Of a stretch of DNA of 64,000 nt, positions 33,173-33,190 are shown in pieces. Under the pieces are notes generated by a model. It saw only the letters and a list, made by a program, of their open reading frames with translations, ran no database searches and was not told the origin of the DNA. Source of the DNA: Escherichia coli (GTDB lineage Bacteria; Pseudomonadota; Gammaproteobacteria; Enterobacterales; Enterobacteriaceae); NCBI RefSeq assembly GCF_024502345.1, contig NZ_JALDNN010000001.1; one strand, written 5' to 3'. The position numbers and the translations under genes are program-made. Within the stretch, counting starts at the first letter, position 1. Every line of letters begins with the position of its first letter.

Positions 33173-33190
33173 GCACTAGTTCTCTAGTAC
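33173..33190 (-). promoter_or_regulatory. TrpR operator of the aroH promoter
   Basis: Minus strand reads GTACTAGAGAACTAGTGC, close to the Trp repressor palindrome; it overlaps the ppsR stop codon. Confidence 0.75.

Follow-up and report, generated by a model that had tools for sequence, protein, structure and literature searches.

The TrpR operator of aroH and its overlap with the end of ppsR in Escherichia coli and its relatives

At the junction of ppsR and aroH in Escherichia coli an imperfect palindrome runs across the stop codon of the upstream gene, which raises the question of whether it serves aroH as an operator, ppsR as a terminator or neither gene, and of whether the coding sequence has constrained the site or the site the coding sequence. 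The palindrome was studied in the window, that is, the whole stretch of 64,000 nucleotides of E. coli DNA analysed here (Table 1), and in the corresponding regions of related species. We conclude that it is very probably the operator at which TrpR, with tryptophan bound, represses P1, the upstream promoter of aroH. The observation is right and is not new, as this is a textbook element, and it adds nothing on the TrpR regulon; what is added here is minor and consists of the family-wide conservation of the site, a frozen codon at the end of ppsR and the likely co-option of that ending.

The DNA between the 3' end of ppsR and the 5' end of aroH is identical to that of E. coli K-12 MG1655, where the two genes are b1703 (ppsR) and b1704 (aroH), and ppsR homologues bear PF03618. 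A 501 bp piece of this region was found unchanged in 5,423 of the 5,426 complete E. coli genomes. In the E. coli variants that were sampled the changes fell at synonymous sites of ppsR and in the P1 spacer, and none fell in the 18-mer itself. Published MG1655 positions were converted by the relation window = 33184 - (MG1655 coordinate - 1788278).

An operator-like palindrome at the ppsR-aroH junction

Read directly from the minus strand, GTACTAGAGAACTAGTGC occupies 33190..33173, exactly where the first-pass annotation had put it, and the junction reads ...CGC CGA ATG TAC TAG AGAACTAGTGCATTAGC... or, in a longer read, ...AGT CGC CGA ATG TAC TAG AGAACTAGTGCATTAGCTTATTTTTTTGTTATCATGCTAACC.... The arms ACTAG and CTAGT are fully complementary on either side of the central AGAA (4 nt), and the outer GT and GC contribute one G-C pair and one T:G mismatch, which in RNA would be a G-U wobble. 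With the aroH ATG at 33027 the palindrome lies 146-163 nt upstream of it, in line with the distance of about 150 nt that had been proposed, and the ppsR stop TAG, placed at 33186..33184 on the minus strand by both the ORF list and the MG1655 annotation, does fall within it. The overlap that had been described is thus real; to call the site embedded in the 3' end of ppsR is generous, since only 7 of its 18 bases are inside the gene (the G that ends Met276, TAC for Tyr277 and the stop TAG) and 11 are intergenic. Literature searches that combined aroH with ppsR or ydiA brought up no paper in which the overlap of operator and ppsR is discussed.

Table 1. Features of the ppsR-aroH region, in positions of the window
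Feature	Position	Strand	Basis
ppsR (ydiA) CDS, 277 aa, PEP synthetase regulatory kinase/phosphorylase	33184..34017	minus	RefSeq annotation of identical DNA
ppsR last sense codon Tyr277 TAC (33189..33187) and stop TAG (33186..33184)	33184..33189	minus	inside left operator half-site
TrpR operator (very probable) of aroH promoter P1, GTACTAG-AGAA-CTAGTGC	33173..33190	minus	consensus match, trpO likeness, conservation
aroH P1 extended -10, TG-t-TATCAT (TGtTATCAT)	33149..33157	minus	read from sequence
aroH P1 transcription start	33141..33142	minus	published 1788320, ±1
GC-rich hairpin GCGAGGTGTG-a-CACACCTCGC	33116..33136	minus	perfect 10-bp inverted repeat
aroH P2, TTGAAA-16-TATCGT	33086..33113	minus	promoter scan; published TSS 1788383 = 33079 ±1
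Palindrome GTGATGCGCATCAC over P2 -10/+1 region	33074..33087	minus	conserved
aroH CDS, Trp-sensitive DAHP synthase	31981..33027	minus	ORF list and RefSeq/MG1655 annotation

A TrpR operator can be recognised as a dyad of about 18 bp with GNACT half-sites and CTAG cores 8 bp apart, which overlaps the core promoter of the gene it regulates, serves a gene of tryptophan or aromatic amino-acid metabolism and recurs in the orthologous promoters of relatives; each of these features was found at aroH, the gene for the Trp-sensitive DAHP synthase. When the window was scanned with GTACTAGTTAACTAGTAC, the symmetric trp-operator consensus, allowing up to 3 mismatches, GTACTAGAGAACTAGTGC was the sole match in the 64 kb, with 3 mismatches, and no match was seen in 100 shuffles that preserve dinucleotides. 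A looser search has no such power, as CTAG-N4-CTAG cores at one mismatch are no rarity (0.68 expected per window, with at least one in 45 of 100 shuffles), and this core pattern by itself is not significant. From such counts the palindrome could be taken for an accident of chance or composition whose CTAG symmetry stems from the TAG stop and which plays no part in regulation here. The absence of the full 18-mer match from the shuffles speaks against this, and the promoter geometry and the conservation described below argue strongly against it, so that we regard a chance origin as extremely improbable.

For comparison, trpO, read from the MG1655 trp promoter as GAACTAGTTAACTAGTAC, is identical to GTACTAGAGAACTAGTGC at 14 of 18 positions, both CTAG cores included. 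Like the aroH site, it is nearly palindromic over 18 bp, has two CTAG cores, overlaps the core promoter of a gene related to tryptophan and has TrpR as its repressor. The two differ in that trpO overlaps the -10 of a strong promoter with a consensus -35 and is intergenic throughout; at aroH it is the -35 of an extended -10 promoter that is overlapped, and the site has 7 bp in common with the end of the upstream gene. The trpR operator, read ahead of trpR in MG1655 as GTACTCTTTAGCGAGTAC and located over the -10/+1 region of that gene, has the same GTAC...GTAC outer symmetry and the same repressor, but it lacks either CTAG core (CTCT/CGAG), while the aroH site has both. The TrpR sites of aroL and mtr belong to the same small regulon as that of aroH, and at these two promoters TrpR acts jointly with TyrR. 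The operators of trp, trpR and aroH are the classical three of TrpR, and tandem TrpR dimers have been reported on that of aroH.

Footprinting and binding studies by Kumamoto et al. in 1987 and Klig et al. in 1988 are cited in PMC7518442. It was stated in PMC5343134 that aroH is negatively regulated by TrpR, that conservation of this interaction does not extend beyond a few close Enterobacteriales and that aroL and aroH form a group of TrpR targets limited to these. The first-pass assignment of the palindrome as a TrpR operator for aroH is thus supported by the repression stated in PMC5343134, by the likeness to trpO and by the position at the promoter. TrpR binding and repression are taken here from the literature, and the sequence of the site, its position relative to the mapped start, its conservation and the freezing of codons were observed directly.

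Promoters, transcripts and RNA folding ahead of aroH

In a SMRT-Cappable-seq study (PMC6131387, Supplementary Data 2) an aroH start was placed at NC_000913.3 1788320 and a second one at 1788383; both come from one high-throughput data set whose coordinates, with thrL at 147, look 0-based, so the aroH starts hold to ±1. The first start lies 7 nt past the hexamer TATCAT (33154..33149), which has TG ahead of it at 33157-33156, and this extended -10 of P1 is placed 18 nt past the operator. The -35 position of P1 (approximately 33178..33172) is poor, with 2 of 6 matches to the consensus, and falls within the operator, which extends from about -48 to -31 of P1 and covers the -35 region. A start of aroH far from the palindrome had been named as the result that would speak against an operator, and this is not what was found, as the start is at 33142 ±1. 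That the operator keeps a fixed distance to both a -10 element and a mapped start is also difficult to reconcile with the chance origin considered above.

P1 thus belongs to the extended -10 promoters (TGtTATCAT) and has next to no match to a -35. We infer that a TrpR dimer bound at about -48 to -31 would sit where RNA polymerase contacts the upstream promoter DNA, and that initiation would be blocked by this occlusion. The mapped geometry agrees with how repression of aroH by TrpR is classically described, with the operator over the -35 region.

The second start lies 63 nt downstream of the P1 start and 7 nt past the -10 of P2, a promoter that lies outside the operator and that was found by the promoter scan independently of the published start. 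The same table (PMC6131387, Supplementary Data 2) includes a ppsR-aroH unit (b1703|b1704) from a start at 1787414, and a unit of ppsR only is absent from it, indicating that aroH is also transcribed from the ppsR promoter. In the window this co-transcript starts at 34048 on the minus strand and runs through the operator into aroH. Because P2 is uncovered and ppsR transcription reads through, repression of P1 cannot fully silence aroH, and the control exerted by TrpR would be partial, with the presumably older P2 and the read-through from ppsR escaping it. In the accessible portions of the Cappable-seq and TERMITe supplements no entries were found for the aroH/ppsR locus. The Term-seq supplement of PMC7815308 includes a strong 3' end antisense to ppsR at NC_000913.3 1787648 (-), which is approximately 33814 (+) in the window.

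It was also considered that the palindrome might act mainly as RNA, its hairpin and the U7 run downstream forming an intrinsic terminator of ppsR and the match to the TrpR consensus being secondary. A terminator scan does flag AATGTACTAGAGAACTAGTGCATT followed by AGCTTATTTT, with 10 pairs and a loop of 4, and the local RNA fold includes the palindrome hairpin (MFE -14.8 kcal/mol over a 66-nt stretch). However, the z-score of this fold is just -1.7, with 13 of 200 shuffles folding equally well, and a hairpin is to be expected of any palindromic operator. Moreover, an intrinsic terminator has a G+C-rich stem directly before its U tract, and here the stem is A+U-rich, with just 3 G-C pairs in 10, and the U7 run begins 6 nt beyond it. 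The T run is unconserved in other genera while the operator bases are conserved, the full-length reads of PMC6131387 gave the ppsR-aroH transcript with no unit of ppsR only in the table, and a 3' end in this intergenic region was not found in the accessible portions of two Term-seq-based supplements. That termination is the main task of the palindrome is therefore very improbable, though a minor contribution to the termination of ppsR may exist.

An arrangement that joins both activities would have the operator, built on co-opted ppsR codons, occlude P1 and at the same time hold TrpR as a roadblock to the read-through from ppsR, with the weak hairpin and the U7 run helping. We consider such a double duty conceivable and rather unlikely; if true, tryptophan would also gate the supply of aroH mRNA that is driven from ppsR.

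The P1 leader carries two further elements. The GC-rich hairpin covers +7 to +27 of the P1 transcript, directly upstream of the P2 -35, and is the main structure in the folded 5' UTR; it may be what is left of a terminator of ppsR, or a stem that stabilises the 5' end. A search of Rfam gave nothing at E <= 1 in the aroH leader or the ppsR 3' end. In Enterobacter, Leclercia and Pseudenterobacter the place of the hairpin is taken by unrelated GC hairpins, and in Serratia a terminator-like GC hairpin follows directly after the ppsR stop. The second element is the palindrome at P2, which is nearly invariant, as GTGATnnnnATCAC, across most of the sampled Enterobacterales, most outgroups included. 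A CRP site was sought in both elements and rejected in both: the candidate at GTGATGCGCATCAC (33087..33074), with 2 mismatches, is at chance level (24 found against 27 expected in the window), and the one in the hairpin (33115..33130) likewise consists of chance-level matches, with other genera carrying the unrelated GC hairpins instead.

Conservation of the site and the frozen end of ppsR

A scan with PpsR gave 80 Enterobacteriaceae species for comparison. The best operator match begins exactly 4 nt before the ppsR stop (offset -4) in 76 of them, and beyond these 76 the operator of Klebsiella has the same offset. Throughout the 76, no base differs in GTACTA on the left or in CTAGT on the right; the 4-nt centre varies freely, as does the adjacent intergenic DNA, and a -10-like hexamer TAnnnT, often with TG before it, follows 17-20 nt past the operator in most. 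That the intergenic half CTAGT should be invariant among 76 species, with the bases alongside it unconstrained, is again contrary to a chance origin of the palindrome.

Inside ppsR the same conservation is seen in the choice of codons. All 76 species encode the final Tyr by TAC, and for the stop 62 use TAA, 14 use TAG (Escherichia, the Citrobacter freundii group and Franconibacter) and none uses TGA, although these counts, like the Fisher tests made on them, overstate independence, as the species are phylogenetically related. Among 194 degenerate codons with an invariant residue just two, those of Tyr277 and Gln90, use a single codon, and the other Tyr codons of ppsR are split between 58:42 and 87:13. 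It had been suggested that a regulatory site is constrained here by a coding sequence; a constraint does exist, but its direction is mainly the reverse, the operator having frozen a synonymous site and the choice of stop in ppsR.

The rule is strong and not absolute. In Shimwellia the right half-site is kept next to a TGA stop (GTACTGAtaaaCTAGTAC), and the ppsR stop is TAA in 15 E. coli genomes, which together indicate that the left CTAG is preferred and not obligatory. One of the TAA genomes is the K-12 record NZ_CP025268.1 (Boston), which may be a recoded strain; the other 14 are further E. coli records. In B95.deltaA (NZ_CP085842.1), an E. coli engineered to be free of UAG, the junction reads ATGTAC TGA TCTG CTAGTGC, by which the left CTAG is destroyed and the operator centre altered.

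Other layouts separate the two genes' claims on the site. In two genomes (L033 and L040) inserted DNA parts ppsR from the operator GTACTAACAAGCTAGTAC, which is still found 159 nt upstream of aroH, and in the former the end of ppsR has drifted to TAT TAG. A third sequence (L070) has a complete operator 20 nt past the ppsR stop. These layouts indicate that the operator belongs to aroH and does not need the overlap for its existence, and the fact that it stays with aroH where ppsR has been moved away (L033, L040) once more disfavours a palindrome produced by composition. The insertion at L040, in Kosakonia sacchari, measures 1.45 kb (3334..4790 of that locus) between ppsR and the aroH operator and carries, on the opposite strand, two small Gly-rich ORFs (MKELTAHEMQYASGG... 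and MKQLSNDEMQAVSGAG...) that resemble microcin or bacteriocin precursors.

Origin of the overlap and its consequences

The order ppsA/ppsR/aroH is shared by Erwinia, Pantoea, Mixta, Dickeya, Serratia and Yersinia, and PpsR ends in Met-Tyr or Met-Phe throughout the Enterobacterales. In six outgroup species of the Erwiniaceae, Pectobacteriaceae and Yersiniaceae no operator was found, the best match having 8-10 mismatches; their last ppsR codon is TAT, TAC, TTC or TTT, and the stop is TGA in three of the six. This comparison indicates that the Met-Tyr-stop ending of ppsR predates the operator. As the outgroups have the same gene order and the same protein ending with no operator, it is suggested that the operator was built onto existing codons.

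The P2 region, in turn, is kept in the outgroups, out to Erwinia, Serratia and Yersinia, and since they have it without P1 and the operator, P2 looks like the ancestral promoter of aroH. Judged from these sequences, P1 and the operator were most likely gained in the lineage of the Enterobacteriaceae, with an existing G-TAC-TAR serving as the left half-site, an order of events that we infer from the comparison. The left half-site GTACTAG consists of the final Met276 base, the codon of Tyr277 and the ppsR stop. The operator and P1 would have been built onto a pre-existing ATG-TAY-stop of ppsR, and TAC would then have been fixed and TAA or TAG favoured. The co-option of the Met-Tyr-stop codons of ppsR as a half-site in the ancestor of the Enterobacteriaceae is fairly well supported.

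Like other dual-use codons, in which regulatory sites lie over the end of an upstream gene, those of ppsR are frozen at the synonymous site of the final codon and in the stop that is used; they differ in that the overlap of operator and gene is just 7 bp and that the protein ending is ancestral. The operator has therefore shaped only the codon usage of ppsR and not the protein. Short as it is, the overlap has held one synonymous site (TAC) across the 76 sampled operator-bearing species, with TAA or TAG as the stop in each. For aroH itself, P2 and the read-through from ppsR would account for the incomplete, leaky repression by TrpR. Finally, the replacement of TAG stops in genome recoding edits the aroH operator at this junction, and could change the control of aroH in B95.deltaA.
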